Shown in pieces: positions 733-35,951 of a stretch of DNA of 37,417 nt. The notes under the pieces are model-generated. The model did no database searches, was not told where the DNA came from, and saw nothing but the letters and a program-made list of their open reading frames with translations. Source of the DNA: an uncultured virus (IMG/VR IMGVR_UViG_3300029705_005139) (lineage: Duplodnaviria; Heunggongvirae; Uroviricota; Caudoviricetes); IMG/VR virus record IMGVR_UViG_3300029705_005139; one strand, given 5' to 3'. Position 1 is the stretch's first letter, and every line of letters starts with the position of its first letter. The position numbers and the translations under genes are program-made.

Positions 733-772
733 AAATCACAATCAATCGCTATGCAGAAGAGAGGTGATACCC

Positions 773-2599: not shown

Positions 2600-2611
2600 G
2601 GGAGGCTTACC

Positions 2612-3169
2612 ATGGCAAATATTCAAGAACGCTTGGATAGCCTGCGTATCCACATTCAGGAACCTGAGTTCCTGGAAGGAAAAGGGTTAAGCAATGAAGT
2701 AAATATCAGAATCTTCTGCTACGATGCCGAAGACGAGATGGTCGTTCGTCATTTTATAGAGCAAATTACCACCGACCAAACCCTTATTTGCAATCTGGTA
2801 GAATGCAACCTATATAAAACGTTCCTCTCTCTTTGCGAGGACATTGACATCATGGATGCGATTCCGGAAATGGAAGAAATGGATGGCAAAGAGTTTTTGC
2901 TTGAGCAGCTCCACTCCGCCATCGGTGAAGGCGAGTTCATCGAGGAAATTCAGTACTGTCCTCACAGAACAGGTGATGTCCTGTTGCTTACCGGCGTTGG
3001 TGATGTATTCCCCTTTATGCGGGTTCATGCCCTACTAGAAGCTCTTCAGCCTCACTTTAGCGACATTCCTATCCTGGTAATGTATCCGGGAACCTTTGAC
3101 GGCAGCTACGTCCGTCTGTTCGACAAGCTAACTCCCAATGCCTACTACCGGGCATTTAACGAAATCTAA
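2612..3169 (+). CDS. brxB: BREX protein BrxB (DUF1788)
   Basis: FLEGKGLSNEV, TGVGDVFPFMRVH, YPGTFDG...LF...YYRAF. Lies between brxA and brxC. Confidence 0.92.
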   Translation: MANIQERLDSLRIHIQEPEFLEGKGLSNEVNIRIFCYDAEDEMVVRHFIEQITTDQTLICNLVECNLYKTFLSLCEDIDIMDAIPEMEEMDGKEFLLEQLHSAIGEGEFIEEIQYCPHRTGDVLLLTGVGDVFPFMRVHALLEALQPHFSDIPILVMYPGTFDGSYVRLFDKLTPNAYYRAFNEI

Positions 3170-3180
3170 GGAGGCCTATC

Positions 3181-6729: not shown

Positions 6730-6749
6730 TCTCGCCAAAGGAATCCGTT

Positions 6750-7244
6750 ATGAAAAGTACAAATTTGTTTTCTGACTTTTTAATCGACAGCAATGCTGAT
6801 TTTTACGACATGGAAATTGATGAAAACAAGAATGCTTTCGTTCAGTTTTTCAAAAAGCCTGTATACTTGACCGTTGAAGACAACCAGCTTCAATTGCTGG
6901 AAGTTTTCACGCCATTGTTCATCTATGAAAAAGGCACTTTGGTTAACCATCCTGCTGGCTTAGTTTCCGGCAGAAGAACTATCGATCCTGCCAGCACACT
7001 TACACCCGGTGATTTGGTCGAGATGGATTGGTACACGGATGAATTCATCTATGATTACCATCCACAGACCTGGTGTCTTACCGATACATTCCGCAGGATT
7101 ACTGACCTGGAGTTACAGCTTATCGGTCAAAACATTACCTATAGCTGCAAGTTATTTGCATTTTATAATGGATTCCAAAAACGAGAATATTCATGGAAGA
7201 CAACCTCTCCCATAAATTGGTTTGGAAAGAATGGTGAATCTTAA
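6750..7244 (+). CDS. Hypothetical protein inserted between brxC and pglX
   Basis: 164-aa ORF with AAGGA RBS. TAA stop directly abuts the pglX ATG. No recognised domain. Confidence 0.7.
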   Translation: MKSTNLFSDFLIDSNADFYDMEIDENKNAFVQFFKKPVYLTVEDNQLQLLEVFTPLFIYEKGTLVNHPAGLVSGRRTIDPASTLTPGDLVEMDWYTDEFIYDYHPQTWCLTDTFRRITDLELQLIGQNITYSCKLFAFYNGFQKREYSWKTTSPINWFGKNGES

Positions 7245-10200
7245 ATGGATAAAAATGCAATTAAGAAATATGCCGTATGGGCGCGCCGGGAGCTGATCTC
7301 CCGCGTGTCCCAAAAGGCACAGCAGTATGGTATCACAGAAGATGTGATCATCCAGGCATCTGCTGATACTATCAATGGTCATGTCTTGTCCGCAACCGAG
7401 AAGGCACAGCGGCAGGCGCTGATCGTTCAGATTCAGGCGAAGGGCTATAAGCAGGTCATGGAGGAAGTTGCCTACACTTGGTTCAATCGTTTCTCTGCTC
7501 TGCGATTCATGGAGGTCAACGGCTATCTTCCTTCCCGTGTCCGTGTGTTCACCGATGAGAACAACCAGTTTGAGCCTCAGATCATTGCCGAGGCCATTGA
7601 CCTTGAAATGGATGGCCTGGACATGGAAAAGGTCTATGCCTATAAGGATGCCAACGATAAAGAGGGCTTGTTCAAGTACCTCATTATCGTGCAGTGCAAT
7701 GCCCTGAGTCCCATTATGCCGGGTATGTTCCAGCGTATTGCTGACTACACCGAGCTGCTGTTCCCGGACAACCTCCTTCGTGAGGGTAGCGCGATCCAGC
7801 AGATGATCGAGCTGATTCCCGAAAAGGACTGGAAGGATCAGGTGCAGATCATCGGCTGGCTATATCAGTTCTATAACATCGAACCCAAGGCAGAGGTGTT
7901 TGCCAAGAAGACAGGTAAGATTTCCAAAGAGGAGATCCCTGCCGCCACCCAGCTGTTTACTCCGGACTGGATCGTACGCTATATGGTAGAAAACTCTTTG
8001 GGCCGACTGTGGATCGAGCGGAATGCGGGTACTGCTAAAGATGAATATGATGAGTATCCTGGTGATGTCAATGAACTGCTGCTTTCCAAATGGAAGTACT
8101 ATCTTTTTGAGGCAGAGCATGAACCTGAGGTACAGGCAGAGCTGAGAAAGATTCGGAAGTCCTACGTATCCATGATGCCGGGAGATATCGAATGTATCGA
8201 TCCCTGCTGTGGCTCCGGTCATATCCTGGCCTATATGTTTGATGTGCTGATGCAGATTTACGAGTCCTTCGGATATACGCCTCGTGAAGCTGTCCGCAGC
8301 ATCGTAGAGAACAATATCTACGGTCTGGACATCGACGAACGTGCAGCACAGTTGGCATACTTCTCCGTGATGATGAAGGCTCGGAAGTATGACAAGCGTT
8401 TCCTGACCCGGAAGGATGAGGACGGCAAGCCGGATGTTCCGCAGCCCCGTGTCTACGAGATCGTCGAGAGCAACAGTCTTGATAGAAGCGCTATTGAACA
8501 TTTCGTTGGTGGAGACCCCGATATCAAAAAGGCAATCAACAGCCTGATCGATGAAATGCGCGATGCCAAGGAGTATGGCTCTATTCTGAACATTACTCCT
8601 GTAGACTTTGCAGCCCTTTACAAGCATTTTGATGAGATACTTTCCGAACCCAGCATTTTCAATCTAGCAATCGAGAATGAACTGCTGCCTTTTATTCGTG
8701 TGGCGGAAGTATTGGCACTAAAATATGATGTGGTTGTTACCAATCCTCCCTATATGGGTGTTTCTGCGGGTAGTGGAAAGCTGAATGAATTTGTTAGAAA
8801 GAATTATCCTGACAGTAAAACTGACTTGTTTGCTGTTTTTATCGAGAGATGTAAATCAATGACCCGAAATAATGGTTATCAAGCCATGATAACCATGCAC
8901 TCGTGGATGTTTTTGACGAGTTATGATAAGCTTCGTGTAAAAATGCAAAACACGGATATTACCAGTATGATTCACCTTGGTGCACGTGCATTCGAAGAAA
9001 TTGGAGGCGAAGTAGTACAGACAACCAGCTTTGTTTTGCGAAAGAGTCATATTAACCGATATAAGGGTGTGTATCACAGACTGATTGATCCTGTGACACA
9101 ACAAGGAAAAGAAGATATGTTCCTTGGCGGAGAAAATCGTTATATTGCTTCTCAGGCAAGTTTTTCAAAATTACCAAGCGCTCCGGTCGCATATTGGGTA
9201 AGTGATAATCTCCTTCAGTTATACAAATATCCGTTGATTGGTTCTCGCTTTACGGCAAAAGAAGGTGTTGGAACGCGAAATGACGAGGTCTTCCTAAAGC
9301 AGTTCTGGGAAGTGTCTACGAAAGACATAGGTATAGGAAAGCGATGGGTGCTCACCGATAAGGCTGGAAGTTTTAGAAAATGGTATCTTGGGTGCACATA
9401 TGTTATGGACTGGGAAAATGATGGCTTTAGAATAAAGAACTTCCGTGATGAAAATGGAAAGCTCAGATCTCGTCCTCAGAATACGCAGTATTTATTTAAG
9501 CCAGGTATTTCTTGGGGCAAAGTAGGTACGGGTGCCAGCTCATTTAGGTTCCGTGATTCCGGATTTGCATTTAATGATGCGGCTCCAACATTGTTTGGAG
9601 ATAATGTATACCCTCTTTTAGCTGCGCTGAATACGAGAATTTATAAAAGACTTAACGAAATTCGTGGCGGAACAATGAATATGACTTGCGGCGTAATCGA
9701 AGAACTTCCTATACTTGGGTATGATTCTGATGAAATGATTTCACGCTTGACAGAACTGGTTTCAGATAATATCCGGTTATCAAAGACAGATTGGGATTCC
9801 TTTGAAACCTCTTGGGATTTTGAATGCCATCCTCTAATCAATATGATTGCCAAGGGCGGCGCATTCTTTGACCGTGGTCGGATTCTGTTGGCGGAATGCT
9901 ACGACCTGTGGAATGCGGAATGCAACGAGCGATTTGCGCAACTCAAAGCCAACGAGGAGGAACTGAACCGCATCTTCATTGACATCTACGGTCTGCAGGA
10001 TGAACTGACTCCTGAAGTAGAGGAAAAAGATGTGACTGTCCGAAAGGCAAATCTCGCCCGCGACATCCGTAGCTTCATTTCCTATGCCGTTGGTTGTATC
10101 TTCGGTCGATACTCCCTTGACGTTCCCGGCCTGGCCTATGCTGGCGGTGAGTGGGACGAATCCAAGTACACCACCTTCTGCGCGGATAAGGACAATATTC

Positions 10201-10763
10201 TGCCTATCTGCGATGACGAATATTTCAAGGATGATGCTGTCGGTCTGTTCGTCAAGTTTGTGGAGCGGGTTTATGGCGAGGACACTCTGGAAGCGAACCT
10301 CCGCTTTATTGCGGATGCTCTGGGTGGCAAGGGCGCACCCCGTGATGTGATCCGCAGCTATTTCCTCAACGACTTCTATGCGGACCATCTGAAGATTTAC
10401 CAGAAGCGCCCCATTTACTGGCTATTTGATTCCGGCAAGAAGAACGGTTTCAAGGCACTGGTGTATATGCACCGCTACAGAGAAGACACCATCGCTCGTA
10501 TGCGTACAGACTATGTGCATGAACAGCAGGCTCGTTACCGCACCGCCATTGCCGATTTGGAGCAGCGCATTGCAGCCGCATCCACCAGTGAGCGTGTGAA
10601 GTTGAGCAAACGGCTCAAGACCTTGCAGGAGCAGGCAGCAGAAATCCAAGGCTACGAAGAAAAAATCCATCACCTGGCCGACCAGTACATTGCAATTGAT
10701 CTGGATGATGGTGTCAAGAAAAACTACGAGATTTTCAAGGATGTCCTTGCAAAAATCAAGTAA
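7245..10763 (+). CDS. pglX: BREX-1 adenine DNA methyltransferase PglX
   Basis: [32 protein letters not shown], motif I DPCCGSGH, motif IV NPPY, C-terminal YQKRPIYW and [11 protein letters not shown]. Confidence 0.96.
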   Translation: [1172 protein letters not shown]

Positions 10764-10775
10764 GGAGACAAATGT

Positions 10776-11720
10776 ATGTACAATGTATTCGAAGCAGCAA
10801 AAGAAACAGTAGCTCCTGATGAGCCCAATGTATTTGCAGATTTTCTGCTGAAATCAGGGCTTTATGACAGGATTGAAGTAAATCAAGAAAATATTCAGCA
10901 ATTAATCAATCTTCTAGCAGGAAGAGTGCGAATTGAATCATATTGTACTACTTGTCAGGAAATGCGCGTATTTTCACTGGAAACAATAAAAGTTTGGCGA
11001 TCTTCACCCAAGGGAATGGTTGAAGACACATTGGCCGACCAATTAGTGCGGTTTCAGACTCGCGTTAAAATTTCCAAAACACCGGCACCTGGACAAGCTC
11101 CACTGAATGAACCGTGGGTTTGGAATGATGCATCGATACAAAGTCATATGCGTGTTTTACCCCTGAGTTTCTGCTGTAGCATGAACGAATGCCACAAACT
11201 GGACATCATCATTGCTACAGATGGAAATGAATTGGTAAAAATCAGTCAGCATCCGTCCGTCGCTGATATTGCCTTTCCCGAACTGAAGCAATATCGCAAA
11301 GTGTTGTCAAAGGGAGATATGGGTGAGATGCGAAGGGCTATTGGCCTTCATGCGCAGGGCATAGGTGTTGGTTCGTATGTGTATCTGCGAAGAATTCTTG
11401 AAAGAGTCATTGATCAGGCAAAGGATATGGCAATTGCAGACTCGGCTATTACCGAGGCTGAGTATGTCCCTAAGAAAATGGCCGAGCGTATAAAAATGCT
11501 CAAAGACTATTTGCCTGATATTTTGGTGAACAATCCAACGGTTTATGGCATTATAAGCAAAGGAATCCATGAACTGTCGGAGGAGGATTGTATTGAATAT
11601 TTCCCGATTGTAAAAGAATGCATTTTTATGGTTCTTGAAAAGTGGGAACAGGCGCGAAAAAAAGCAGAATCTGAGAAACAACTAGGTGCTGCTCTTTCGC
11701 GGATTGCATCAAAAATCTAG
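10776..11720 (+). CDS. Accessory protein between pglX and pglZ; Cys pairs plus DUF4145/HEPN-like C-terminus
   Basis: AAGGAG RBS. YCTTC and CCSMNECH. C-terminal GVGSYVYLRRILE...YGIISKGIHELSE resembles DUF4145-type HEPN (inference). Confidence 0.6.
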   Translation: MYNVFEAAKETVAPDEPNVFADFLLKSGLYDRIEVNQENIQQLINLLAGRVRIESYCTTCQEMRVFSLETIKVWRSSPKGMVEDTLADQLVRFQTRVKISKTPAPGQAPLNEPWVWNDASIQSHMRVLPLSFCCSMNECHKLDIIIATDGNELVKISQHPSVADIAFPELKQYRKVLSKGDMGEMRRAIGLHAQGIGVGSYVYLRRILERVIDQAKDMAIADSAITEAEYVPKKMAERIKMLKDYLPDILVNNPTVYGIISKGIHELSEEDCIEYFPIVKECIFMVLEKWEQARKKAESEKQLGAALSRIASKI

Positions 11721-11736
11721 GAATTGAGGTGCTGTT

Positions 11737-14349
11737 GTGCCTAGTATGGATTTACAAAAGATTATACACGATTTGAATCGACGCTTTGCTGCACCGTTGC
11801 CTGATTTCTTTACCCGTCGAATCATCTTCTGGTATGACGAAGACAGGGAATTTGAGGACAAAGTGGAAAGCCTGGTTCTGGAAAATGCCAAGGTGCTTTT
11901 ACTAACTGGCAATAACACCTTTGCCGCAAAGAAAATCCTGGCAGCGGATGACACCTCCAGTAACTATTTGGTGTATTCGCCCCTTCGCTACGAAAGGCCG
12001 GAGGACAACTGGCTCATCAACATCGAACTGTACAGCGAGGAATTCCGGGCAGATCTCAATTCTATCTGGATGGATGAAATGGGACTGCCTAATAATGCCA
12101 CCGTTCGCCGCATGGTGAAGGGCTATCGTAAGTTCTTCAACAGCATCGAGCGCCGAAAGAACGTGGCTGCCATGGCAAAAGGCATTTCCACCGCTTCTCA
12201 ATTACATCTGGCCGTGATGGCATCCCTTTGCAATCTGCAGGATGTCCAACCGGCAAACATTATCCGTGCGGTTTTAAGCCACTCCCTGGAACTGGATACC
12301 AATTCCTATTACCAGGACTTTGTGAAGTACGGTGCAAATAACGCTTTCTGGGTAATGGTGGCACAGGCTACTGGTTATTCTGAGGGTGATGACTCCGACC
12401 TGGGTCGTCTGGCAACTCATATCATGCTGACTGCCTCCACCCGCACTATGCGGCCCGAGTTCCTGGCAGGATTGGACAGCTTCATTTCTATTCCCCACCA
12501 ATCCTATTGCTACGATCTGGTTTCTGATTGGCTCCAGTCTTCGGACAACCATGGTCTGTATGAGATCGCACGGTTTGTAGAATATGAGGCACGACTGAGT
12601 ACCCGATTCATGAAGATGACAGTCGAAGATCTTGCTGATACCGAGTGTTTCCCCTGCATCAATGAGTGTATTCTGAAACTGATGATGAAAGATATCAGCA
12701 ACTACATCATCAATATCGACACCATTGCTGTCATCGTCCAGAAACGTCGCACACTCGCATGGTATGATGCTGTGTCCTGCTATTATGAAGGTCTGCTTCA
12801 GGTGGGCAACATGCAGCAGTTCTTCCATGACCATGCAACCGGATTCCATTTGGCCCAGCCACAGCTGATTTGGAAGGCCTACACCTCAGACTATTATAAG
12901 ATGGATACCTACTACCGGCAGTTCCATCTGTGCTTTGAGCGAAGCCTAACTATTTCTAATGAAACATTGGACGATCTGTTCAAACAGGTGGTAGACAAGG
13001 TGGAGGGCCTGTATAACAACTGGTTCCTCTCCGAATTGGGCAGCAACTGGTCTGATGTATGTGCAGATGAGTTGGCTCAATATGGTCGTATCCTTGAAAT
13101 TAACCAACAAGAGCGTTTCTACCTCAGTAAGCTGGCAACCCGGGATAACCGTGTCTACGTTATTATTTCCGATGCCCTCCGTTATGAGGTTGCAGTTTCT
13201 CTGACTGAACAACTCAGGAGAGAAACACAGAGCAAGGTCACTCTGGAAAGCATGCAAGCTGTGTTCCCCACTATTACCAAGTTTGGCATGGCAGCACTGC
13301 TCCCTCACTCCAAACTGAATGTCGTTACCAAGGCAAATGGCGGTGTCTCCGTACTGGCCGACGGAGCCTCCACGGAAATGCCCTATCGGGATAAGGTTCT
13401 CAAGACTGCCCACGGTGCCAGCGTAGCCCTTCAGTACAAGAACATCATCAAGCTGAAGCGTGCTGAACGGCAGGCACTCGTCAAGGGCATGGATGTTGTT
13501 TACATATACCACGATAAAATTGACGAGGCCAGCCACACCGCAGACAATTTGGTATTTCCTGCCTGTGACGATGCCATTACAGAGATTAAAAACCTCATCC
13601 GCGTCATCGTCAATGACTTTGGTGGAACACGAATTCTGATTACAGCGGACCATGGTTTCTTATATACCTACAGTCCGTTGACTGAAGATGACAAGGTAGA
13701 CAAGACCAGCTTCCAGGGTATGGATGTAGAATATGGACGTCGTTATGCAATAATGCAGCAAGGTGCAAAGCCTGACTATTTGCTGCCCGTCCGCTTCGTG
13801 GATGAAGAATCTGGACTGGATACTTTTGCCCCCAGAGAGAACGTCCGCATTAAAATGAGCGGCGGTGGTATGAACTTTGTTCATGGCGGCATCAGCCTCC
13901 AGGAGATGGTCGTTCCGGTCATCGACTATCAGTTCCTCCGAAGCACAAGCAAAACCTATCAGCGCAACCGCGAGAAGTATGACACCAAACCTGTAACAGT
14001 GAGTCTCCTGTCTGCAACCCGGAAAATCAGTAACATGATTTTCTCACTGAACTTCTTCCAAAAAGAAGCCGTTGGTGACAATCGGTCTGTATGTAACTAT
14101 CTTTTATATTTTACAGACACAACCGGGAAACAGATTAGCGATACGGCTCGCATCATTGCAGACAAGACCAGCGACAATGCCCAGGATCGGACATTCCGCT
14201 GCAGCTTCAATCTAAAGAGCTTAAAGTACAGTAACCGAGACAGCTACTATCTGATTATTGCGGACGAATCTGGTTTACAGGCACCACAGCGTGAGGAGTT
14301 CCAGATAGATATTGCCTTTGCACTGGACGAGTTCAATTTCTTCGGTTAA
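11737..14349 (+). CDS. pglZ: BREX-1 alkaline-phosphatase-fold protein PglZ
   Basis: RRIIFWYD, IISDALRYE, PTITKFGMAALLPH, ITADHGF, HGGISLQEM. GTG start after GAGGTG (ATG 11746 is an alternative). Confidence 0.95.
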   Translation: MPSMDLQKIIHDLNRRFAAPLPDFFTRRIIFWYDEDREFEDKVESLVLENAKVLLLTGNNTFAAKKILAADDTSSNYLVYSPLRYERPEDNWLINIELYSEEFRADLNSIWMDEMGLPNNATVRRMVKGYRKFFNSIERRKNVAAMAKGISTASQLHLAVMASLCNLQDVQPANIIRAVLSHSLELDTNSYYQDFVKYGANNAFWVMVAQATGYSEGDDSDLGRLATHIMLTASTRTMRPEFLAGLDSFISIPHQSYCYDLVSDWLQSSDNHGLYEIARFVEYEARLSTRFMKMTVEDLADTECFPCINECILKLMMKDISNYIINIDTIAVIVQKRRTLAWYDAVSCYYEGLLQVGNMQQFFHDHATGFHLAQPQLIWKAYTSDYYKMDTYYRQFHLCFERSLTISNETLDDLFKQVVDKVEGLYNNWFLSELGSNWSDVCADELAQYGRILEINQQERFYLSKLATRDNRVYVIISDALRYEVAVSLTEQLRRETQSKVTLESMQAVFPTITKFGMAALLPHSKLNVVTKANGGVSVLADGASTEMPYRDKVLKTAHGASVALQYKNIIKLKRAERQALVKGMDVVYIYHDKIDEASHTADNLVFPACDDAITEIKNLIRVIVNDFGGTRILITADHGFLYTYSPLTEDDKVDKTSFQGMDVEYGRRYAIMQQGAKPDYLLPVRFVDEESGLDTFAPRENVRIKMSGGGMNFVHGGISLQEMVVPVIDYQFLRSTSKTYQRNREKYDTKPVTVSLLSATRKISNMIFSLNFFQKEAVGDNRSVCNYLLYFTDTTGKQISDTARIIADKTSDNAQDRTFRCSFNLKSLKYSNRDSYYLIIADESGLQAPQREEFQIDIAFALDEFNFFG

Positions 14350-14373
14350 TCCGTTCGCACTGGAGGTATATCC

Positions 14374-16437
14374 ATGGAGCAATCCATTATGGGCGATAAT
14401 GCCCGAGAAATAATCAAATACAAACTGCGCCAAACCTTTGATGGAAAAATCGTCCGTAAGGATCTTACCAAAAAGATCAAAGAGGGTGCCAATGTTCCTG
14501 TTTATGTCTTAGAGTTCCTTCTGGGGCAATACTGTTCTTCCGATGATGACGAAATCATTGAAAAAGGCGTACAAAATGTGAAGCGCATTCTGGCGGATAA
14601 CTTTGTCCGCCCGGATGAGTCACAGAAAATTCTGGCCAAACTCCGCAGCAACGGTAGCCATACTGTCATCGATATGATTACAGTCAGCCTGGATATTCGA
14701 AAGAATCGGTTTTTTGCTTCTTTCTCCAATCTCGGTCTAGGCGATGTTCCGATTGCAGATGAGTATCCGGAACAGTATGACCGACTCCTGTGTGGCGGTA
14801 TTTGGTGTATCGTCCAACTGGAGTATGAGTATAACGAAGAAGATAAGAAAAATGGTTACCCCATATTAATCCGGAAGTTGACCCCCATTCAAATGCCCCA
14901 CGTGGACATTGATGAATTGAAGGCCGGCAGGAAAGCTTTTACAAAAGATGAATGGATTGATGTTCTTCTCCGATCCATCGGTATGGAGCCGGATGAACTA
15001 TCCTACCGTGAGAAATGGCTGCTTATCACCAGAATGATTCCCCTGGTAGAAAACAACTTCAACCTTTGCGAGTTGGGTCCCCGTAGCACTGGCAAATCAC
15101 ATCTCTATAAAGAAATTTCTCCCAACAGCATTCTGGTTTCCGGTGGTCAAACCACTGTTGCCAACCTGTTCTATAACATGGGCCGCAAGACCGTTGGCTT
15201 AGTGGGTCTCTGGGACTGCGTTGCATTTGATGAGGTTGCCGGTATCCGTTTTAAGGATAAAGACGGTGTCCAGATTATGAAGGACTACATGGCTTCCGGA
15301 TCTTTTGCCCGTGGTAAAGAAGAAAAAGCTGCCTCTGCTTCCATGGTATTCGTAGGCAATATCAACCAGAGTGTGGATGTACTATTAAAGACTTCCAGCT
15401 TGTTTGATCCATTCCCACCGGAAATGGGTACCGATACCGCATTCCTGGATCGCATGCACTGCTATCTCCCTGGTTGGGAAATTCCCAAGTTCAGACCAGA
15501 GCATTTTACCAATGATTACGGATTCATCACTGATTACCTCTCTGAGTTTATTCGTGAATTGCGGAAGGAGCAGTATGGTGATGCCCTAGATCATTATTTC
15601 CGCCTTGGCAAGAATCTGAACCAACGTGATACCATTGCCGTGCGCAGAATGGTAGACGGATATCTAAAACTGATTTATCCCGATGGCGACTTCACAAAAG
15701 ATGATGTTGAAGAAATTCTGTGTCTTGCTCTTGAGATGCGACGCCGCGTTAAGGAACAGCTGAAAAAACTAGGCGGCATGGAATTTTACGACGTTAACTT
15801 CTCGTATATTGACAACGAGAGTTTTGAGGAACGCTATGTTACTGTCCCTGAACAAGGTGGCGGCAAACTAATTCCCGAAGGCATGTGCAACCCTGGACAG
15901 GTATATACCGTATCCCGGGGTAAATCCGGCATGCTTGGCGTGTTCCGTCTGGAATCTCAAATGTTACCTGGCAACGGTAAATTTGAACGAACTGGCCTGG
16001 GCGCAGATCGAGAAGCACGCGAATCCAGCAACACTGCTTTTAATTTCTTGAAAGCCAATGGCAACAGAATCAGCGGTAACATCAGTACCACAACCAAAGA
16101 TTATATCGTCAACTATCAGGACCTTCAGGGGATCGGCATGACCGGAAAACTTGCTATGCCCACGCTGATTGCTTTAGCATCTATCGCCCTCTCCAAGCCG
16201 GTCCAGAGTTCCATGGTGGTGCTTGGTGAGATGAGCATCGGTGGTACCCTTGTCAAGGTTGATGAGCTTGCAAACGCCTTGCAAGTTTGTCTGGACAGCG
16301 GTGCAAAGAAGGTCTTATTGCCTATTACCTCTGCAGCAGATTTGGCAATGGTTCCGGCAGATTTGATTGGTTGCTTTAATCTGATATTCTATAGCACTGC
16401 CGCTGATGCAATTTTCAAAGCACTAGGTGTAGACTAA
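14374..16437 (+). CDS. brxL: BREX Lon-like AAA+ protein BrxL
   Basis: VRKDL, VPVYVLEFLLGQYC, ELGPRSTGKSH, VAFDEV, C-terminal Lon-like domain. Confidence 0.95.
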   Translation: MEQSIMGDNAREIIKYKLRQTFDGKIVRKDLTKKIKEGANVPVYVLEFLLGQYCSSDDDEIIEKGVQNVKRILADNFVRPDESQKILAKLRSNGSHTVIDMITVSLDIRKNRFFASFSNLGLGDVPIADEYPEQYDRLLCGGIWCIVQLEYEYNEEDKKNGYPILIRKLTPIQMPHVDIDELKAGRKAFTKDEWIDVLLRSIGMEPDELSYREKWLLITRMIPLVENNFNLCELGPRSTGKSHLYKEISPNSILVSGGQTTVANLFYNMGRKTVGLVGLWDCVAFDEVAGIRFKDKDGVQIMKDYMASGSFARGKEEKAASASMVFVGNINQSVDVLLKTSSLFDPFPPEMGTDTAFLDRMHCYLPGWEIPKFRPEHFTNDYGFITDYLSEFIRELRKEQYGDALDHYFRLGKNLNQRDTIAVRRMVDGYLKLIYPDGDFTKDDVEEILCLALEMRRRVKEQLKKLGGMEFYDVNFSYIDNESFEERYVTVPEQGGGKLIPEGMCNPGQVYTVSRGKSGMLGVFRLESQMLPGNGKFERTGLGADREARESSNTAFNFLKANGNRISGNISTTTKDYIVNYQDLQGIGMTGKLAMPTLIALASIALSKPVQSSMVVLGEMSIGGTLVKVDELANALQVCLDSGAKKVLLPITSAADLAMVPADLIGCFNLIFYSTAADAIFKALGVD

Positions 16438-26757: not shown

Positions 26758-27681
26758 CTATCCACAATACAGCATCTCTTCAATCTCCATCGGATCCATG
26801 CCATCCTCAAGCAGAGCATCAATATCTTCTGGATACAGGCCATAGAAGACCGCAATTGCTTTCAAATCATCCAGATAGCTGGAATCATCTGCATATGGCC
26901 GTCTCACCGGATCGTAGTTGGCCCAGTAATGCCAATCAGTGGAAAAGCCGGGATAGATGTTGCTGTCATCAAACTGGCTGCGGGTGATTTTGCCTCTGGC
27001 ATCGATCCGAAGCATTTCTCCGCTGACCATATGTACCTTTTCTGCTTTTCCTAAAGGCAGCAATGCTTTCAGCATGGCCTTTTTCAGAATTTCCTCCGTA
27101 CTGGCATATACATAGATGCCCGCGTCAGGGTAGTGATAAATACACATGGGGTTGTTTCCTTTCACAAAATACAGCTCGTCCCTTTCGGTCAGAGCCGTAA
27201 TAGTGAAGGATCCTTCCAGTTGTTCTGCCATAAACTGTAATCCGCGGAAGTCTATGGAATCGAATCGCTCCAGCAACTGTACCGCCACATAGCTGTCTGT
27301 CTCGATTCTACTCTTGGGCAGATTCAGTTTCTTCTGGAGCCGTTCGTCATTGTAAATGATGCCGTTGTGGGCCAGAGCAAAGCGTGTATTGCCAGCCCAG
27401 CCGTGGAAGGGATGGTTGTTCTCATTTTTCAGTGCAGAACCCTGGGTGGTCATTCGGGTGTGACCCATAACCGCAGTTGCGCTTAGAGGCACACGATACC
27501 ACATCAGATGGGCAGGCAGAGGGCGCTTATAGATATACTGCTTTCCCTCAAAATTGTAGGAAATACCAGTGGCATCCGTGCCGCGTTCTTCACAGGAGGC
27601 CGACAAAATTGTCAGCAACCGGTGCCTCTGCTTTCGGGAGAGCTTGTGACCATAATCATGAAAACCAAACAGGCAGCACAT
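26758..27681 (-). CDS. Class II (Ntn) glutamine amidotransferase-like protein
   Basis: N-terminal MCCLFG (Cys2), ERGTDATG, GHTRMTTQG, NNHPF, LAHNGII, TDS. Confidence 0.88.
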   Translation of the reverse strand: MCCLFGFHDYGHKLSRKQRHRLLTILSASCEERGTDATGISYNFEGKQYIYKRPLPAHLMWYRVPLSATAVMGHTRMTTQGSALKNENNHPFHGWAGNTRFALAHNGIIYNDERLQKKLNLPKSRIETDSYVAVQLLERFDSIDFRGLQFMAEQLEGSFTITALTERDELYFVKGNNPMCIYHYPDAGIYVYASTEEILKKAMLKALLPLGKAEKVHMVSGEMLRIDARGKITRSQFDDSNIYPGFSTDWHYWANYDPVRRPYADDSSYLDDLKAIAVFYGLYPEDIDALLEDGMDPMEIEEMLYCG

Positions 27682-27683
27682 AC

Positions 27684-28784
27684 TTACACCTCCGCTTCGG
27701 CAACAACTGGATCATTTACGTACAGTCTGCGCTCCTTCAAATACTGAACAAGCTCGGGCTGCGTACAGCCGGCTACGAAAGTGGACCAGGACATATCCTT
27801 GATTTCCTCGTCAGAAAGATAAAGAGCCACGTCGCAGATCCTGTCAATGAGCTGCAGCGTGGCTAAAAGCGTATTCAGTTTCAATGTACCTCGGAAAATT
27901 CTGAATTCAATGGTATGGTAGTTAGTGAGGTTTATGCAGGTATACCGTTCCCGATCACCCTTAGCACACTTCAGAATGTCCTTAGGGTGCTCCTTTAAAC
28001 CATATCTGGCTGCCCACTGTTTCAGCTGCTTATGGGTACGGCGGCTGAATTTCAGCAGTTCCTCCCAGTTTTTCTCAAAGAAATATAAGATTCTGGCGAT
28101 TACTTCATCCTGTTCAGCTTCAGTTTTTCCGAAAGCACTGCGGTTGATGTGGATGTGCAGGCCACAGGTTCCGGCCTGGTGGCTGAGATAACCCATTTCC
28201 TTTGCCTGATTCAGAACTGCAGACCAGGGCATGTTGTTCATATGGTAGTCGATGGTCATGGGATGAGTAACAATTTCAAATCCGTCACTGAGAGAACCGT
28301 CATGCTTGCAGTAGATGTGTTCGCCTCCTTGGTTAGCTACACTCACAATCTTCGCAGCATTGCTGTTGCGTTCTCCCGCATCATCAATTTCCAGTTCAAC
28401 ACCAAACCAACGGCTGCCCTGACCCAGGAAGTCAGGTTCCGGTTTGTAATAATAGTCATGGATTACTTGGCTGTCATCGTAGCGGCAATGGCAGGAATAG
28501 CATCTGGCTTCGTAACTGTCATCATCCACGTAATAAGCATCATCGGTCAAAATGACACGGCCACAGTCTTCGCAGGAAGTGTAATAGCGGTCATAGCAGC
28601 GCTGACAAAGATGGGTAGCATCATCACCAGCGTTACTGTCTGCCCAGAGACGCTCACCACACCGCTGACAACAAATGGTTTCTGTGTGCAGACAGGAAGA
28701 GCAAAGATAGCTGTCATCAAATTCCGTCAAGTCCTCCACCGGATGCAGGCTGCCGCAGACACTGCAGGATCTCATTTCTTTCAA
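27684..28784 (-). CDS. Putative amidoligase (COOH-NH2 ligase fold) with N-terminal Zn ribbons
   Basis: FGVELEID, KHDGSL..GFEIVTHP, CGLHIHI, TIEFRIFRGTL; six CxxC pairs. TTG start 7 nt after GGAGGT. Confidence 0.85.
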   Translation of the reverse strand: MKEMRSCSVCGSLHPVEDLTEFDDSYLCSSCLHTETICCQRCGERLWADSNAGDDATHLCQRCYDRYYTSCEDCGRVILTDDAYYVDDDSYEARCYSCHCRYDDSQVIHDYYYKPEPDFLGQGSRWFGVELEIDDAGERNSNAAKIVSVANQGGEHIYCKHDGSLSDGFEIVTHPMTIDYHMNNMPWSAVLNQAKEMGYLSHQAGTCGLHIHINRSAFGKTEAEQDEVIARILYFFEKNWEELLKFSRRTHKQLKQWAARYGLKEHPKDILKCAKGDRERYTCINLTNYHTIEFRIFRGTLKLNTLLATLQLIDRICDVALYLSDEEIKDMSWSTFVAGCTQPELVQYLKERRLYVNDPVVAEAEV

Positions 28785-29107
28785 GGGAATTACCTCCATA
28801 AAATAAAAATTCCGCATGGGGCATAACAGCTCCATGCGGTTGTTTCTATGAAGATAATATACAATTGATATCGTGCTATTTTGACATAGGTGTCTCTTCT
28901 CGCTTAATATGTCTGATAAGTACAAGGTAATTGAGTATATGTGCTCATGCTGCAAATTGCGTCTCAGATTATTGCAATAATATTTGCATCAATTTCAGTT
29001 CTTTATTAAAACACATTTCCCACGATTTAGTCGCTTTTTACTCTCCCGTGAACAATGTAATAAAGAGAAGCTGTTTTCACTTCTTAAAAATAAAAGGAGG
29101 ACCTACT

Positions 29108-30568: not shown

Positions 30569-32551
30569 TTATTTCATATGCTTAAAGCGGATACCTTCAA
30601 TGGTACTGCGCGCATTTTTATATTTTCCATCGTGATAAGAACGGATTTTATTGGCCCCATAGATTTCCTCAGCCATTCGCTGGAAAGATGCAGAAAACAT
30701 CTTCTCTGTAAAATGGTTGGAAATATCGTTAGAAAATATTTCGTAGGCATTTCCAATCGCTACTTGACCGCCAGGATCTCTCTCAAAATAACTCATTAAA
30801 AAATTGTACACCAGAGGTGTAATCTCAGAGCCTCCCAGAAGATCGTCGGGATACAAAAGAGACGAATTCACTGCATAGTCTCCTGCAAAATGATAGTGAT
30901 TATCCCGCAGTCTGAAATAAGCATCCAAAGCTTTAGACGCAATAGCAGGCTTCTCTTCCTTTAAACGATCCAGCAAATCTTCGTCCTTTGCTTCTTGAGG
31001 AACCGTATAGAAAAACGGAATGACCACCGCACGTCTCATAAAGGCATCATCAGGTTCCTCCGTTACCAGAGGATAATTCGTGGTAAGAATAAATTTACCT
31101 TCGAAACGGAACTGCTTGTTTCCTTTATGCTTTACCGCAGCAGAAATCTTATCATTACCGGTTGCCTGCTTAACACAACTGGTAGACTTCGTGTCCAGGG
31201 GCTCAGGAGGCAGGTCGGGAGACAGACACAGTGCTACAGAATCGAGATTTCCCATTGCAAATTCTCCCTTCAATGCATGTACATTAAGTCCTGAAACCTT
31301 ATCCTCCGGATAGAAATCACCCAATAAGTTACACAAAATACTTTTACCGGAGTCCGGAACACCTTGAAACAGGAAATATGCCTTTGCATTTCTATCAGAA
31401 GTCAAGCAATACCCAAAAACCTGCCAAATGCGTTCCTGCAATGTAGTGTCTCCTCCTGTAATATCGTGCAAGAACTTATCAAATACAGGAGAATTTTCGT
31501 TCTGATTATTGTATCGTGCCAAATTACAATTCACTGCATGCGTAACTACATTAGCAGGTGAATGTTCCATTAACGTTCTATTATTCAGATCGATCGTACA
31601 ATTTGCAAAGGAAACCTTATTTGGGTCAGAAAGAGGAACCTCATTTCTAACAATTTGAGGCTCTTTCAGGAGTAATTTATACACCTTTTCAATCACGGAA
31701 CCACTTCCACTTTCCCTAATAATCGGGCGGTACATCTCCATGATCATCTGTTCAACTTCACACTGAGGAGTCTTATTATAGCTTCCGCTTACATCGTCAT
31801 AGATGTACACCTCCTGCTTATGTGTAAATACAGGAACTTTTAAAATGAAATCTGTCATGATGTCATAAGCAGTTACTTTGATTCCTTTCTTTTTACCCGA
31901 TCCCCTACCCGAACCAGAAGAAAAACCAGGGAATACAACAGGAAACATTCCGGGCATATTAGGTGCCTGCAAGGAAGGCACAAATTGATTGGGATTAGGC
32001 ATGGAATTCGGAATTGGCATAATGGTTCCTTGCATATTTGCTTCCATTGCATAATTGGAGGATCCTGCAGCAGACTGCTGAGATGCGTTCAAATAATCTG
32101 CATACGGGTTGAACGATTTTCTACAGGGTGCCACAGAATTATTCATGGTAACACTTCTTTCGTTGTTTCCATTAAATTGCACCATATTTCTCTGCGACAG
32201 AATTGCATTCGCCTGGGCCCCATGATTAGATGTAGCTCCCGGCATTACAATTACATTTTCTTTCTCATTCATCTGTACAGGACAAGAAGAAAATGCATTC
32301 TCTACTGCACTATACTTCCTATTCACAGTATCATTACCTAAATCAACTACACTGTCAACAGGAGGAATGGCCATATTCTGTACACTCATAATACCTGTAC
32401 CAACCTGCCCTGTAGTTGGAACCATTGCATTTACAGGGGCAGAAAACCCCTGCTCTGGCTGATGCTGCATAAAGATATTGTCAGTAGACTCTTCATTCTG
32501 AATAATCAAATCAGTAAAATCAATGTTATCGAAAATCTTACCACTAGTCAT
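30569..32551 (-). CDS. P4/D5-family SF3 helicase (phage/plasmid primase-helicase C-terminal type) with low-complexity N-terminus
   Basis: FANCTIDL...EHSP, FDKFL..I, FGYCLT, Walker A GVPDSGKS, KQATGND.ISAAVKHK, TTNYP, AFMRR..VIPF. AAGGAG RBS favours ATG 32551 over 32587. Confidence 0.85.
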   Translation of the reverse strand: MTSGKIFDNIDFTDLIIQNEESTDNIFMQHQPEQGFSAPVNAMVPTTGQVGTGIMSVQNMAIPPVDSVVDLGNDTVNRKYSAVENAFSSCPVQMNEKENVIVMPGATSNHGAQANAILSQRNMVQFNGNNERSVTMNNSVAPCRKSFNPYADYLNASQQSAAGSSNYAMEANMQGTIMPIPNSMPNPNQFVPSLQAPNMPGMFPVVFPGFSSGSGRGSGKKKGIKVTAYDIMTDFILKVPVFTHKQEVYIYDDVSGSYNKTPQCEVEQMIMEMYRPIIRESGSGSVIEKVYKLLLKEPQIVRNEVPLSDPNKVSFANCTIDLNNRTLMEHSPANVVTHAVNCNLARYNNQNENSPVFDKFLHDITGGDTTLQERIWQVFGYCLTSDRNAKAYFLFQGVPDSGKSILCNLLGDFYPEDKVSGLNVHALKGEFAMGNLDSVALCLSPDLPPEPLDTKSTSCVKQATGNDKISAAVKHKGNKQFRFEGKFILTTNYPLVTEEPDDAFMRRAVVIPFFYTVPQEAKDEDLLDRLKEEKPAIASKALDAYFRLRDNHYHFAGDYAVNSSLLYPDDLLGGSEITPLVYNFLMSYFERDPGGQVAIGNAYEIFSNDISNHFTEKMFSASFQRMAEEIYGANKIRSYHDGKYKNARSTIEGIRFKHMK

Positions 32552-32611
32552 TATAAATTTCTCCTTATTTTTTAAAAAATCTGACATGTAACATATTGCT
32601 GTTAATGTTGA

Positions 32612-32815
32612 TCAAGTATCAACTGAATAATCCTCAACAGAAAATTCAAACACATATTTCCGCAGGTATAATCCACACCGCACTTTTTCACACCATGTAT
32701 CATATAAATTAGCGCTGTCTCCCCAATACAGAATATCTCCATTCGCATCCCGTATTCTGTAACTCCCCGGAGCACTTGGTGGAATCGAATGACAATATAC
32801 TTTTTTGTAGGTCAT
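32612..32815 (-). CDS. 67-aa protein resembling the N-terminal half of a GIY-YIG domain
   Basis: PSAPGSYRIRDANGDILYWGDSANL resembles UvrC-type P..PGVY...D..G..LYVGKA.NL. AAAGGAG RBS. Confidence 0.6.
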   Translation of the reverse strand: MTYKKVYCHSIPPSAPGSYRIRDANGDILYWGDSANLYDTWCEKVRCGLYLRKYVFEFSVEDYSVDT

Positions 32816-32824
32816 GTTTTCTAC

Positions 32825-33353
32825 TCCTTTCTTTGAAGATGGCTTTAGTTTATCAATTCGGGCAAAAGTTGCGTCAGCTGATAGCTGACATTTTCGTTTT
32901 TCATGCAATTATTTTCTATAAGTCTATTGACTGTTATATTGTATCTGGACACGATTTTCTTTTTACTAGACATGTATTCCACTCCCTTCTTTAAACTGGC
33001 TACAATTTATCATTTCAGATCAGCTTCGCGTCAGCTGGCAACTGACATTTCGTTTTTTACCCTCAAAAAATGTAGTTCTATTGACAATCCTATTACAGGT
33101 CTTCATCACCCTATTTTCATTGGACATATCTTTCGCTCGTCTCTTCAAAGATAGCTATAATTTATCACTCCAGACAAATTTTGCGTCAGCCAATAACTGA
33201 CATTTACCTGTTCAATAAAAAGTTCCAAAACTCTGTCAACAATCAGATATCTTTCCTTTGTAATTCTATATTCATCAGAAAACAGCCTTCCTTCCCCTGA
33301 AGATAGCCTTAGTATATCAATTTGGCAGTTTCCCGTGTCCGCCGATAGCTGAC
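32825..33353 (-). repeat. Four degenerate ~155-bp tandem units, each palindrome + extended -10 + RBS
   Basis: Palindromes start at 32873, 33030, 33185 and 33337. Each is exactly 17 nt from TGATAAACT, TGATAAATT, TGATAAATT or TGATATACT on the minus strand. Confidence 0.85.
32845..32973 (-). CDS. 42-aa small ORF within the repeat array
   Basis: AAGGGAG RBS, MSSKKKIVSRYNITVNRLIENNCMKNENVSYQLTQLLPELIN. May be a by-product of cassette duplication. Confidence 0.35.
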   Translation of the reverse strand: MSSKKKIVSRYNITVNRLIENNCMKNENVSYQLTQLLPELIN

Positions 33354-33395
33354 AAAAAAACACACCTGCACCAAATCATAGGTGCAGGTGTGTTT
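33354..33395 (-). terminator. Rho-independent terminator of the macro-domain gene
   Basis: 15-bp IR aaacacacctgcacc / ggtgcaggtgtgttt plus U7 tail. Confidence 0.85.
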
Positions 33396-33406
33396 ACACA
33401 ATCAAT

Positions 33407-34387
33407 TTAAATTTCGCCTAAGCCATTTGCGACACGCATATCATTATATCGGATTACATCATACCCCTCAGTTGAGAAAAACTCTTTTATTAATCTGTCC
33501 TCTTGCTTGTCATCTGACAAAGCATATCCCGCTTTTTCCAAAAACTCCTCCATTTCTGCAAAAGAGAGTTTCAATTGTATGGCAATTAAAATTACCGTCT
33601 CTTTTTTAGGTGTTTTCTTCCCAGAAAAAATATCGGAAAAGCTCTGACGAGACAGATTAATGAATTTATATATTTGAGGGGCATCCAAATTTCTATTATT
33701 CATATAATATCTTAAAAGATCAACGAAGCTCTTAGGTTGCATATTCACATGAAAATAATCAGATTGTAGAATAGATTCATGAATACGTTCCGGTGGCTCA
33801 TACGATTGATGTCGTGTGTATTCATACTCTAAAATTTTACGCGATTCTTCATATGTTAAGTATTCTTCTACTGCAAAAACTTTCCGTACAGCAGAAACAG
33901 TGGCTTCATCAAATACAGTAATATAGATTTCCATGTTGTTATTCAGTGCAAACTGCATGCCCTCAGAAATCGCCATTGTCAAAGAAACCTCGATTGGAAT
34001 CTGGTAAATTCCCGTGCCAAGCAATGGCATTGCTATAGACACAGAAAGCAAATTATGATTTTGCATATAGTCTACTGCAGCAGCCAATGATTTATGATAG
34101 CACTTCTGCACGCAAGCATATTCATCATGAAAACCATCCGTCCATGCAACTGAAACCACATGGATTACTTTTTTTGCATTCAATCCAAATGCATCAGTAA
34201 TTGCAATGTCGCCAGACGTAATCGTGCCAATTTTTTTACGTTCCTCCCACATCGCCAGTCCCGCTTTATTAAAAATAGCCTTATCCAAACCATTTCCAAT
34301 TTTCGGTTCCGGATTGGCAGTATTAACGATAAAATCTACATAGAATGGCAAATCAGCCAGATTGGCACGAATGATATGGATTGACAT
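33407..34387 (-). CDS. Macro-domain (ADP-ribose-binding) protein with C-terminal XRE-type HTH
   Basis: DFIVNTAN...GNGLDKAIF.KAG, AKKVIHVV, SIAMPLLGTGIY; then QIYKFINLSRQSFSDIFSGKKTPKKETV...LEKAGYALS. Confidence 0.88.
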   Translation of the reverse strand: MSIHIIRANLADLPFYVDFIVNTANPEPKIGNGLDKAIFNKAGLAMWEERKKIGTITSGDIAITDAFGLNAKKVIHVVSVAWTDGFHDEYACVQKCYHKSLAAAVDYMQNHNLLSVSIAMPLLGTGIYQIPIEVSLTMAISEGMQFALNNNMEIYITVFDEATVSAVRKVFAVEEYLTYEESRKILEYEYTRHQSYEPPERIHESILQSDYFHVNMQPKSFVDLLRYYMNNRNLDAPQIYKFINLSRQSFSDIFSGKKTPKKETVILIAIQLKLSFAEMEEFLEKAGYALSDDKQEDRLIKEFFSTEGYDVIRYNDMRVANGLGEI

Positions 34388-34432
34388 AGTTAATTTCCTC
34401 CCCACTATTTTTTAGGAGTTATATCTTTTTTG

Positions 34433-34520: not shown

Positions 34521-35951
34521 TTAACTCAAAGCCAGCTGCAGCACAAACTGTCCAATCTCACAGGGGATATTCGCCACAGGTGTCGGAATCGGAGGATAGA
34601 TGCAAGTTCCCAGTTCCTCCTGCAAACTCTCCCGCAGTTCAGACAGGCCCTGCATCAGGTTGGACGTATTGCAGTTGATTTCCGGAAAGTCCGGCATTGT
34701 AAGCTCTGCAGTACCGTCAGAAAGATTGGTCACCAGTACAGGATACGTGGTATCCACGCTTACGGGCTCCGGAATGTTGAACAGTTCTTCCATCAGTGCC
34801 ATGCCAGCCTGCTTGTGATCATCCAGCACATGAGCATAGGTATCCAGTGTAAATGCCACGGATGCATGGCCCAGAATGACGCTCAGGGTCTTGACATCCA
34901 TGCCCTGCTCCATAGCTCTGCTCGCAAATGTATGACGCAGGGCATGGAATGTAAAGTGCCGAAGGCCGCACACACGCAGAATCTGATTGTATTGATCCTT
35001 AAAGGTGCGGGGCTCCATATATCCGCCCATGGGATTTGTCACAATGAAACCGCTTTCACAGTAAGCATCCCCCGCTGCCAGTTTATCCTGCTGCTGAACA
35101 CGCTGCCAGCCCTGCAGATCCTGCAAAACCTGCGGCAGCAGCGGAATGGAGCGGACAGAATTCTGAGACTTGGGTGTCTGGATCACGATCTCCGTTGTAG
35201 CCTCTCCCGCATTCTTGGGTTTGTTGGTCTTATTCAGCCGATTCAGTGTACGGCGAATGTAGATTCGCCGGCCCTGTACATCTACGTCCTCCCAACGCAG
35301 GCCCAGCAGCTCCCCAACTCGAATACCGGTAAACAGCACCAGCCGAATAAAAACACCGTAACGATGCTGGTAGCTTCCCTGGATCAGCCGCATCTGCTCA
35401 TCTCTGGTCAGAATCACGATCTGAGGCCGAGCTCCACTGGGCAGGTTCACAGAGGAGGCAGGATTGCTGTTAATGTAACCCTCCGCCTCTGCAAACTTTA
35501 GCGCCCTGTGCAGGAACAGATTGATATTCACAATTGTTTTTGCAGATAAACCCTCCACCTCAGCCTTGTAATTATAGAAAAGCTGCAGTGTTCTGGGAGT
35601 CAGTTCCTGCAAAACAATATCTCCCAAAGCCGGTTTCAGATGAACCCGAATATAACTTTCATAGCTGAGATATGTAGACTGCTTCAGCGTATGCTTCATA
35701 TACACATCCAGACACAGATCCAGCCAATCTCCCAAAGTAACACGCGTAAAGTTATTGGGACTGGTATCGTTCATAAAGCTCATCTGATTCAGCAGGCGTA
35801 CTGCTTCTTCTTTTGTCTTTGCATACTTGGAAACCCTCTTGGGCTTTCCGGTCATTTTGTCATAGTCCACGGTTACACGGACCTCATAGCGGCCATCGGA
35901 CCGCATCTTGATATTGCCTTCGTTGTTGGCTCTTGATTTTGCCATAGTCAT
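34521..35951 (-). CDS. Tyrosine recombinase/integrase with C-terminal HicB-like extension
   Basis: Arm-binding N-terminus, core-binding domain, catalytic TGIRVGE, TPKS, FHALRHTF, LGH, LDTYAH. About 75 extra C-terminal aa. ATG 35945 is an alternative start. Confidence 0.93.
   Translation of the reverse strand: MTMAKSRANNEGNIKMRSDGRYEVRVTVDYDKMTGKPKRVSKYAKTKEEAVRLLNQMSFMNDTSPNNFTRVTLGDWLDLCLDVYMKHTLKQSTYLSYESYIRVHLKPALGDIVLQELTPRTLQLFYNYKAEVEGLSAKTIVNINLFLHRALKFAEAEGYINSNPASSVNLPSGARPQIVILTRDEQMRLIQGSYQHRYGVFIRLVLFTGIRVGELLGLRWEDVDVQGRRIYIRRTLNRLNKTNKPKNAGEATTEIVIQTPKSQNSVRSIPLLPQVLQDLQGWQRVQQQDKLAAGDAYCESGFIVTNPMGGYMEPRTFKDQYNQILRVCGLRHFTFHALRHTFASRAMEQGMDVKTLSVILGHASVAFTLDTYAHVLDDHKQAGMALMEELFNIPEPVSVDTTYPVLVTNLSDGTAELTMPDFPEINCNTSNLMQGLSELRESLQEELGTCIYPPIPTPVANIPCEIGQFVLQLALS

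Follow-up and report, generated by a model that had tools for sequence, protein, structure and literature searches.

Ahead of the primase-helicase gene of a mobile island recovered from gut metagenomes, a promoter-like cassette made up of a palindrome, a -10 box, an RBS and a start codon is found not once but four times in a row. The question that this locus raises is whether the four copies act together as one control region for the replication genes behind them, or are instead remnants of a duplication, a set of binding sites or a series of small genes. The stretch of DNA analysed here (hereafter the window) has 37,417 nucleotides and comes from the uncultured virus record IMGVR_UViG_3300029705_005139. 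Our main reading, to which we give a probability of about 0.5, is that the regulated promoter of a replication operon (orf67 plus primase-helicase) would have been duplicated in tandem to give four copies, all of them functional.

Genomic context of the array

The window corresponds, in reverse orientation, to the opening 37.4 kb of a "provirus" record in IMG/VR. Along its minus strand the genes are ordered as a NikA-like gene with a short MobA/VirD2-type relaxase, an integrase, a Macro-HTH protein, a terminator, the array, orf67 and the primase-helicase. The features that surround the array are the following:

34521-35951, minus strand: tyrosine integrase of the island (Pfam Phage_integrase 1e-24; PHROG integrase 7e-82)
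33407-34405, minus strand: Macro domain plus C-terminal Xre-type HTH, 332 aa (Pfam Macro 8e-23; HTH_3 0.0016, below gathering)
33358-33395, minus strand: intrinsic terminator of the Macro-HTH gene, with a 15-bp perfect stem, an 8-nt loop and a T-run that abuts the palindrome of unit 1
32612-32815, minus strand: orf67, first gene of the operon, 67 aa, conserved, with a predicted fold that is weakly GIY-YIG-like
30569-32587, minus strand: primase-helicase of the P4/D5 type (D5_N + DUF5906 by Pfam), 672 aa (PHROG DNA primase 6.5e-42)

The array begins right after this strong terminator and finishes at the ATG of orf67, with the primase next on the same strand. A first-pass annotation, made from the sequence alone, had proposed that the repeats feed the helicase operon, and the orientation of the units toward the operon of orf67 and the primase-helicase, directly 5' of it, agrees with this. 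The rest of the window is defence cargo, including a complete type-1 BREX set. From this gene context, the array heads the replication module of an integrase-bearing island, probably mobilisable, located beside a prophage. The stretch was found in runs recorded as feces or gut metagenomes, and we regard the host as a gut Clostridia-type bacterium. Homologs of the primase-helicase numbered 76, about 38 of them at 51-86% identity, and the latter came almost exclusively from Logan and ENA assemblies.

Several features of the cargo deserve a description of their own. The BREX set (window 1994-16437, plus strand) comprises BrxA, BrxB, BrxC, a PglX-like methylase, PglZ and BrxL, between which two unassigned ORFs (164 and 314 aa) are interleaved, and is preceded by an Xre-type HTH gene (1698-1985). 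Just 5' of this block, a gene (671-1447, plus strand) encodes a 258-aa protein in which a sigma-70 region 4 (residues 73-123) precedes a domain like the alpha-CTD of RNA polymerase (residues 185-244), an unusual pairing. In another pair of cargo genes (26758-28955, minus strand), the first encodes an Amidoligase_2 protein of 423 aa and the second a protein of 307 aa that resembles class-II glutamine amidotransferases. An AT-rich stretch, a candidate origin, is found 3' of the primase terminator. The remaining part of the record (G000:C1:37001-69872; L023, L024) is prophage-like, with RusA, the small and large terminase, portal, Dit and tail genes, together with DNA methylases, a PriCT-2/AAA_25 primase-helicase, an Abi_2 gene and a Y-family polymerase; therefore the island with the array adjoins a possible helper.

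Anatomy of the four units

A repeat search showed four tandem units arranged head to tail on the minus strand, which is also the strand of the flanking genes, from 33354 to about 32816. Their start-to-start spacing is 157, 155 and 152 bp, and the units measure 152, 155 and 157 nt, with a last one of 75 nt that runs up to the orf67 ATG. The same search returned two repeat families, one of 18 nt (32873-32890, 33030-33047, 33185-33202 and 33337-33354) and another of 37 nt that spans the -10 and leader block. Every unit keeps the same order of elements: a 17-bp palindrome (GTCAG-N7-CTGAC), a spacer of exactly 17 nt, an extended -10 (TGATA(A/T)A(C/T)T), a conserved block at the predicted start and, before the ATG, a purine-rich RBS. 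In the order of transcription they are:

33203-33354, minus strand: unit 1, with palindrome 33337-33353 (one half-site mismatch, in the right half), extended -10 33311-33319, and ATG 33275 followed by only 10 codons (to 33243)
33048-33202, minus strand: unit 2, with palindrome 33185-33201, extended -10 33159-33167, weak RBS, and ATG 33127 opening a 35-codon ORF (to 33020)
32891-33047, minus strand: unit 3, with palindrome 33030-33046, extended -10 33004-33012, RBS, and ATG 32973 opening a 42-codon ORF (to 32845)
32816-32890, minus strand: unit 4, the proximal promoter, with palindrome 32873-32889, extended -10 32847-32855, AAGGAG RBS, and ATG 32815 of orf67

The ORF of unit 2 traverses the palindrome of unit 3, and that of unit 3 traverses both the palindrome and the -10 of unit 4. 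A composite pattern of palindrome, 17 nt and TGnTA matched the minus strand four times (three exact, one with a single mismatch) against 0.02 expected, and none of 100 shuffles reached four. Throughout the 69,872-base record, these four composite sites of the array are the only ones. The bare palindrome, with up to one mismatch, has six matches in the window against 0.75 expected, and four of the six are in the array. Tandem Repeats Finder left the array unreported, the unit cores being about 63-72% alike, around or below the roughly 70% that the tool needs.

The description given by the first-pass annotation therefore stands in its essentials, namely the four-fold array with its period of 157/155/152 bp, the palindrome followed by 17 nt and a TG-containing -10 in each unit, and the ATGs at 33127, 32973 and 32815, to which the one at 33275 in unit 1 has to be added. 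The genome-wide motif scan that it had suggested is the one that placed all composite sites within the array. Its statement that this is not a CRISPR is likewise correct: the repeats of a CRISPR array are identical, measure 24-48 bp and alternate with unrelated spacers of about the same length, and here we find a 17-bp dyad and 135-140 bp "spacers" that are homologous to one another.

Promoter geometry and proposed mechanism

In the four units, a TG stands one base 5' of a -10 hexamer that has T, A and T at its first, second and sixth positions (TGA-TA(A/T)A(C/T)T), i.e., an extended -10. The canonical -35/-10 arrangement is absent: a consensus sigma-70 scan called none of the four boxes, since a -35 that matches in four or more of six positions is lacking 16-18 nt upstream, and CTGACG is located 19 nt before the hexamer. 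With a start about 7 nt past the hexamer, which is only predicted, the dyad would cover approximately -49 to -33 and be centred near -41. Class II activator sites have such a geometry, and so do operators that occlude the -35 region. Given this predicted centre and the lack of a usable -35, each unit would be an extended -10 promoter that depends on a regulator, and the array a series of four that feed orf67 and the primase. The activator-type arrangement favoured initially is compatible with a dyad near the predicted -41, and a repressor site fits equally well.

According to the mechanism that we propose, the 17-bp dyad predicted in each unit would be the binding site of a dimeric DNA-binding protein, and one such regulator would occupy the four dyads and switch the four promoters jointly, either activating from a Class-II-like position or repressing through occlusion of the -35 region. 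Since the terminator scan found no terminator between the units on the gene strand, transcripts that start in any of them would continue into orf67 and the primase. The short ORFs of units 1-3 would be by-products of the duplication and not products in themselves. The palindromes themselves resemble protein sites more than RNA structures, since the half-sites are conserved and the stem is not, and only one of the four folds into a stable RNA hairpin (-9.9 kcal/mol, with -5.2 to -5.4 for the others), which fits protein binding. The transcription starts, the protein binding, the sign of the regulation and any benefit that four copies bring are inferred. A single RNA-library run (X20) contained one 242-nt contig (32435-32676) that joins orf67 and the primase and lies off the array; it could be DNA carry-over.

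Conservation of the array in other samples and in relatives

All four units are present in three other samples. In the three DNA runs, which belong to three different studies, the contigs traverse the four units colinearly with no joint within the array (three of three). The differences in the array relative to the window amount to about 1.5% (8/549 in X13). Those that fall inside a palindrome (33193 and 33196) affect its N7 spacer and neither half-site, and a single difference affects a -10 box (33314, TATACT to TAAACT). The 5' part of the primase gene behaves in another way, with some 20 differences in about 170 nt (window 32197-32369) in runs X11 and X14, against the 1.5% of the array. A 17-nt tandem repeat (32017-32057) is located near this hotspot, whose pattern suggests mosaic recombination.

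Relatives of the locus turned out to be scarce. Searching for it with the single primase protein against viral contigs, or with a 20-sequence primase alignment against genome contigs and viral contigs, returned nothing, and the phage and plasmid collections contained only primase relatives below 33% identity over 58% of the protein or less. The same alignment against metagenome contigs retrieved four short contigs, two of which (L010 and L012) reach the promoter, with the palindrome in L010 only. In L010, whose primase is 61% identical, the order is a T-run, the dyad GTCAG-N7-TTGAC, 18 nt and TGATAGAAT, after which come an RBS, the start codon of the orf67 homolog (72 aa) and the primase gene. 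L012 is truncated within the promoter and retains the -10 (AGATACAAT, without TG), the leader block and orf67. A scan of IMG/VR with a single-unit pattern gave four loci with one isolated match each, and no second palindrome in any of them. The tandem pattern of two palindromes gave ten loci, which by their flanking sequence appear to be unrelated repeats that differ in sequence and composition.

A further relative emerged when the 42-aa ORF of unit 3 was used as query in a full HMMER search, which matched four proteins: the ORF itself, a 42-aa protein 59% identical to it (P0200), and two long proteins that we took as unrelated, each being matched by several short stretches (8 and 5). The contig of P0200 has 4,276 nt, the same size as the longest contig of P0001, the primase with 86% identity. 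The conserved block of P0200 is exactly the one that overlies the upstream A-tract and palindrome of the next unit, and its N-terminus and the stretch lying over the 17-nt spacer have diverged, so the relative with the 86% identical primase has at least two units and the constraint acts on DNA elements and not on the peptide. In L010, on the other hand, the T-run at the 5' end resembles the terminator tail before unit 1 and not the A-tracts that precede units 2-4, which hints that this relative has a single unit and that one copy suffices. The copy number in relatives, which the first-pass annotation had wanted to see, is accordingly at least two units in the closer relative and probably one in L010.

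These comparisons bear directly on the main rival explanation, in which unit 4 alone is a working promoter and units 1-3 are decaying relics of a duplication without function. We consider it unlikely, yet it is the competitor that survives best. The probable single unit of L010, with its T-run directly upstream as at unit 1, is what would be expected, and so are the weaknesses seen in unit 1 (the half-site mismatch and the 10-codon ORF) and in unit 2 (the weak RBS). Furthermore, for some pairs the identity of the core and of the distal part differs little, as in units 1 and 2, with 47/75 and 44/73, respectively. Several observations speak against it. Where unit 4 agrees in the alignment with L010, taken as an outside reference, units 1-3 have kept the position in 111 of 138 cells (80%), versus 65 of 123 (53%) for the other columns (Fisher odds ratio 3.7, p=3e-6, with three related units counted as independent), therefore the extra copies keep the positions that L010 keeps, although site-specific mutation rates could contribute to this result. 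The 17-nt spacing is exact in the four units despite indels elsewhere. The palindrome region is unchanged in the relative that carries P0200, with the rest of the unit down to 59%, and the presence of all four units in three other samples points in the same direction. The initial impression that the intervals had diverged while the motif was kept thus needs to be nuanced: the motif positions are constrained, and the divergence is not sharply bimodal, as the figures for units 1 and 2 illustrate. Constraint is seen at single motif positions rather than across the entire core.

The homologs of orf67 in L010 (82-300) and L012 (52-270) have 72 aa, are 47-48% identical and precede the primase in both. 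Orf67 has no Pfam or PHROG match, and a homolog search with the protein recovered only itself. The AlphaFold2 model has a pLDDT of 73.5 and gives Foldseek matches to GIY-YIG proteins at E 0.05-0.9 (UvrC N-terminus, T4 EndoII and Hpy188I); a GSY...YWGD...NLY motif is also present. At 67-72 aa the protein may be too short for a full nuclease. Just 5' of the primase RBS, a single TGTCAG half-site with ATTT after it is conserved in the three loci (window 32576-32590, L010 around 265-280 and L012 around 225-240), non-coding in the window and within the longer orf67 in L010 and L012.

Other explanations for the repeats

A slightly less probable alternative is that the palindromes form a binding array, i.e., autoregulatory or origin-like sites for the primase-helicase (Rep), or a platform for titration or looping of a regulator, and that the -10 boxes of units 1-3 are incidental. 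Rep proteins of iteron plasmids do bind inverted repeats at their own promoters, the array adjoins a rep-type gene in an AT-rich region (GC 0.36-0.38 versus about 0.45 for the window), and the half-sites are its most conserved element. The dyads nevertheless recur with a period of about 155 bp, unlike iterons, in which direct repeats some 20 bp long are closely packed. The copies also keep the -10, leader block, RBS and ATG, and the phasing has not been kept, helical phase not being maintained by spacings of 152, 155 and 157 bp, and the AT-rich possible origin lies 3' of the primase terminator instead. Two particular forms of binding array were considered separately. An iteron-type origin, with closely spaced direct repeats of about 17-22 bp beside an AT-rich unwinding region, does not fit inverted repeats that stand 155 bp apart, each with its -10, RBS and ATG. 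A lambda-type operator cluster consists of adjacent operators with a period of some 20-25 bp, bound cooperatively by the neighbouring repressor; the period here is 152-157 bp, and nothing that was found links the adjacent HTH protein to the palindrome.

Could the array be a series of small genes, each with its own promoter, that produce micro-proteins of 35-42 aa or small RNAs? The first-pass annotation had entertained both versions, and we find the idea very improbable. Units 2 and 3, it is true, each carry an RBS and an ATG that opens a frame, of 35 and 42 codons respectively and in a common register, and the P0200 relative has a homolog of the same length, 42 aa. The frame of unit 1, however, closes after 10 codons, and the identity between units 2 and 3 by codon position is 15, 13 and 12 of 25, with no excess at the third position, so that the codon-position signature of a peptide array is missing. 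Conservation in P0200 follows the DNA elements of the next promoter and not a peptide domain. There is no Pfam match and no significant PHROG match, the sole row being one PHROG at E 0.12. Small RNAs fare no better: no Rfam family was found, the palindrome is the only conserved fold, and the units are not separated by gene-strand terminators. The search of the array against Rfam gave four sub-threshold matches, all on the terminator hairpin and none at the gathering score; the consensus RNA fold has pairs in the palindrome only, with no compensatory changes; and a tRNA search gave nothing. Of the initial proposal, the stacked multi-promoter switch that feeds the helicase operon is plausible, and the peptide and small-RNA arrays are unlikely.

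Hardly credible, finally, is a plus-strand role, with the palindromes as terminators and/or their CTGACA as the -35 of antisense promoters in an array that blocks or makes antisense RNA: two of the four palindromes (32873 and 33030) were flagged as terminator-like with a T-tract after them (32873-32912 and 33030-33071), and two promoter-like sites have CTGACA as -35 (32885 and 33042, 9/12 each), but only one hairpin in four is stable, the T-tract accompanies just two of them, the promoter-like matches do not exceed shuffles (14 versus 8.7 +/- 3.1), no plus-strand gene lies downstream and the ortholog keeps the gene-strand layout.

The candidate regulator

Under the preferred reading of four functional regulated promoters, the adjacent Macro-HTH protein is the obvious candidate regulator. 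Residues 207-316 match transcriptional regulators in PHROG, and the AlphaFold2 model (pLDDT 91) has a Macro part that resembles YmdB/MacroD2. Its adjacency to the primase extends to the close family, where the longest-contig sizes coincide (38,688 and 45,124). There is also a chimera (P0105) that fuses residues 52-241 of the Macro-HTH protein to residues 436-669 of the primase, a join that implies a deletion variant lacking the HTH, the array, orf67 and the N-terminus of the primase. Domain listings give two more proteins of this kind (P0035 and P0047), with a Macro domain ahead of the helicase portion from the primase C-terminus. Against this candidate, no copy of the palindrome lies at the promoter of the Macro-HTH gene itself.

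We surveyed 87 Macro-HTH loci (80 genome and 7 viral, 86 of them with a tblastn match), including distant relatives from Lachnospiraceae, Oscillospiraceae and Ruminococcus genomes. None of the distant loci in this survey has the primase, orf67 or an integrase, and palindromes are not enriched near the distant genes, with one of 38 matches near the gene. Repeated palindromes 3' of Macro-HTH were flagged at two of 81 loci, where they belong to an ADP-ribosylglycohydrolase gene and are coding, and a stretch of N accounts for a third flag. The distant family has a different context: distant Macro-HTH genes (30-37% identity) adjoin an ADP-ribosylglycohydrolase gene at nine of 13 sampled Clostridia loci (L037, L038, L040, L041, L049, L059, L079, L086 and L104), the latter gene being fused in several cases to an SseB-like domain; this is apparently a conserved chromosomal pair for the reversal of ADP-ribosylation.

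The specific version in which the dyads are predicted Macro-HTH operators, forming a four-step cooperative switch that couples an ADP-ribose-type signal to the onset of replication of the BREX island, seems to us quite unlikely. A MacroD/YmdB-like domain that binds or hydrolyses ADP-ribose, fused to the Xre-type HTH, would sense the signal, which might come from, e.g., phage attack or a NAD-consuming defence. As the regulator, the Macro-HTH protein has equally plausible competitors in the primase itself, orf67 and a helper-element factor. In the excerpts that a literature search returned, there was no mention of this element, of Macro-HTH regulators or of tandem operator-promoter arrays before P4-type primases.

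Significance

Overall, we regard the array as an unusual but not fundamentally new form of control of replication genes, a duplicated regulated promoter that requires no new category. If all four copies fire under one regulator, promoter dosage and operator multiplicity would tune the replication switch of a defence-carrying island, and uncultured gut Clostridia would provide a natural example of it. The array would also offer a compact and testable part (17-bp dyad plus extended -10) and point to the existence of a regulator. If only the last copy works, the array would be a snapshot of regulatory DNA in the course of duplicating and decaying.

Comparison with known systems

Iterons are direct repeats of approximately 17-22 bp, spaced by about 22 bp. 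The array shares with them, and with Rep autoregulatory inverted repeats, the location of repeated sites beside a replication-initiator gene, and is unlike iterons in that its dyads stand 155 bp apart, embedded in promoter copies. Among the switches of mobilisable islands, the late promoters of P4 and P2 are activated by a helper. In the helper-activated type, a factor bound to a dyad 5' of promoters without a good -35 turns on the replication genes of the island, and since there is a prophage next door, such logic is plausible here. In contrast to these systems, neither a helper factor nor a motif in common turned up for our locus, whose motif is restricted to the array within the 69.9-kb record. 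The island SGI1, with the AcaCD activator of IncC plasmids, has helper-activated promoters too (PMC7433901).

Repressor-operator switches of phages and islands are well known, e.g., lambda OR/OL, SaPI Stl at the str/xis promoters and ICEBs1 ImmR. As in these, the palindromes overlap a predicted promoter that would launch an excision/replication module, and an HTH gene is located directly upstream, beside the integrase. Those switches, however, pack 2-3 operators into some 80 bp at one or two promoters, whereas the array has four full promoter copies 152-157 bp apart, co-directional and not divergent genes, and an HTH protein with a Macro domain. Natural tandem promoters include rrn P1-P2 and the early T7 series A1-A2-A3. 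They are also serial promoters, 100-150 bp apart, that serve one transcription unit, but they are not copies of one another and have no shared operator; the units of the array are paralogous and come with their RBS and ATG. Activator-dependent promoters of Class II comprise CRP/FNR at -41.5, lambda CI bound at OR2 to activate PRM, and the ComR/Rgg-type boxes of Firmicutes. The array resembles them in its dyad of about 17 bp centred near the predicted -41, in the poor -35 and the reliance on an (extended) -10, and in the A-tract just upstream of the dyad, where the alpha-CTD would sit. Unlike in these promoters, and with a start that is here only predicted, it is the whole promoter that is present four times in tandem.
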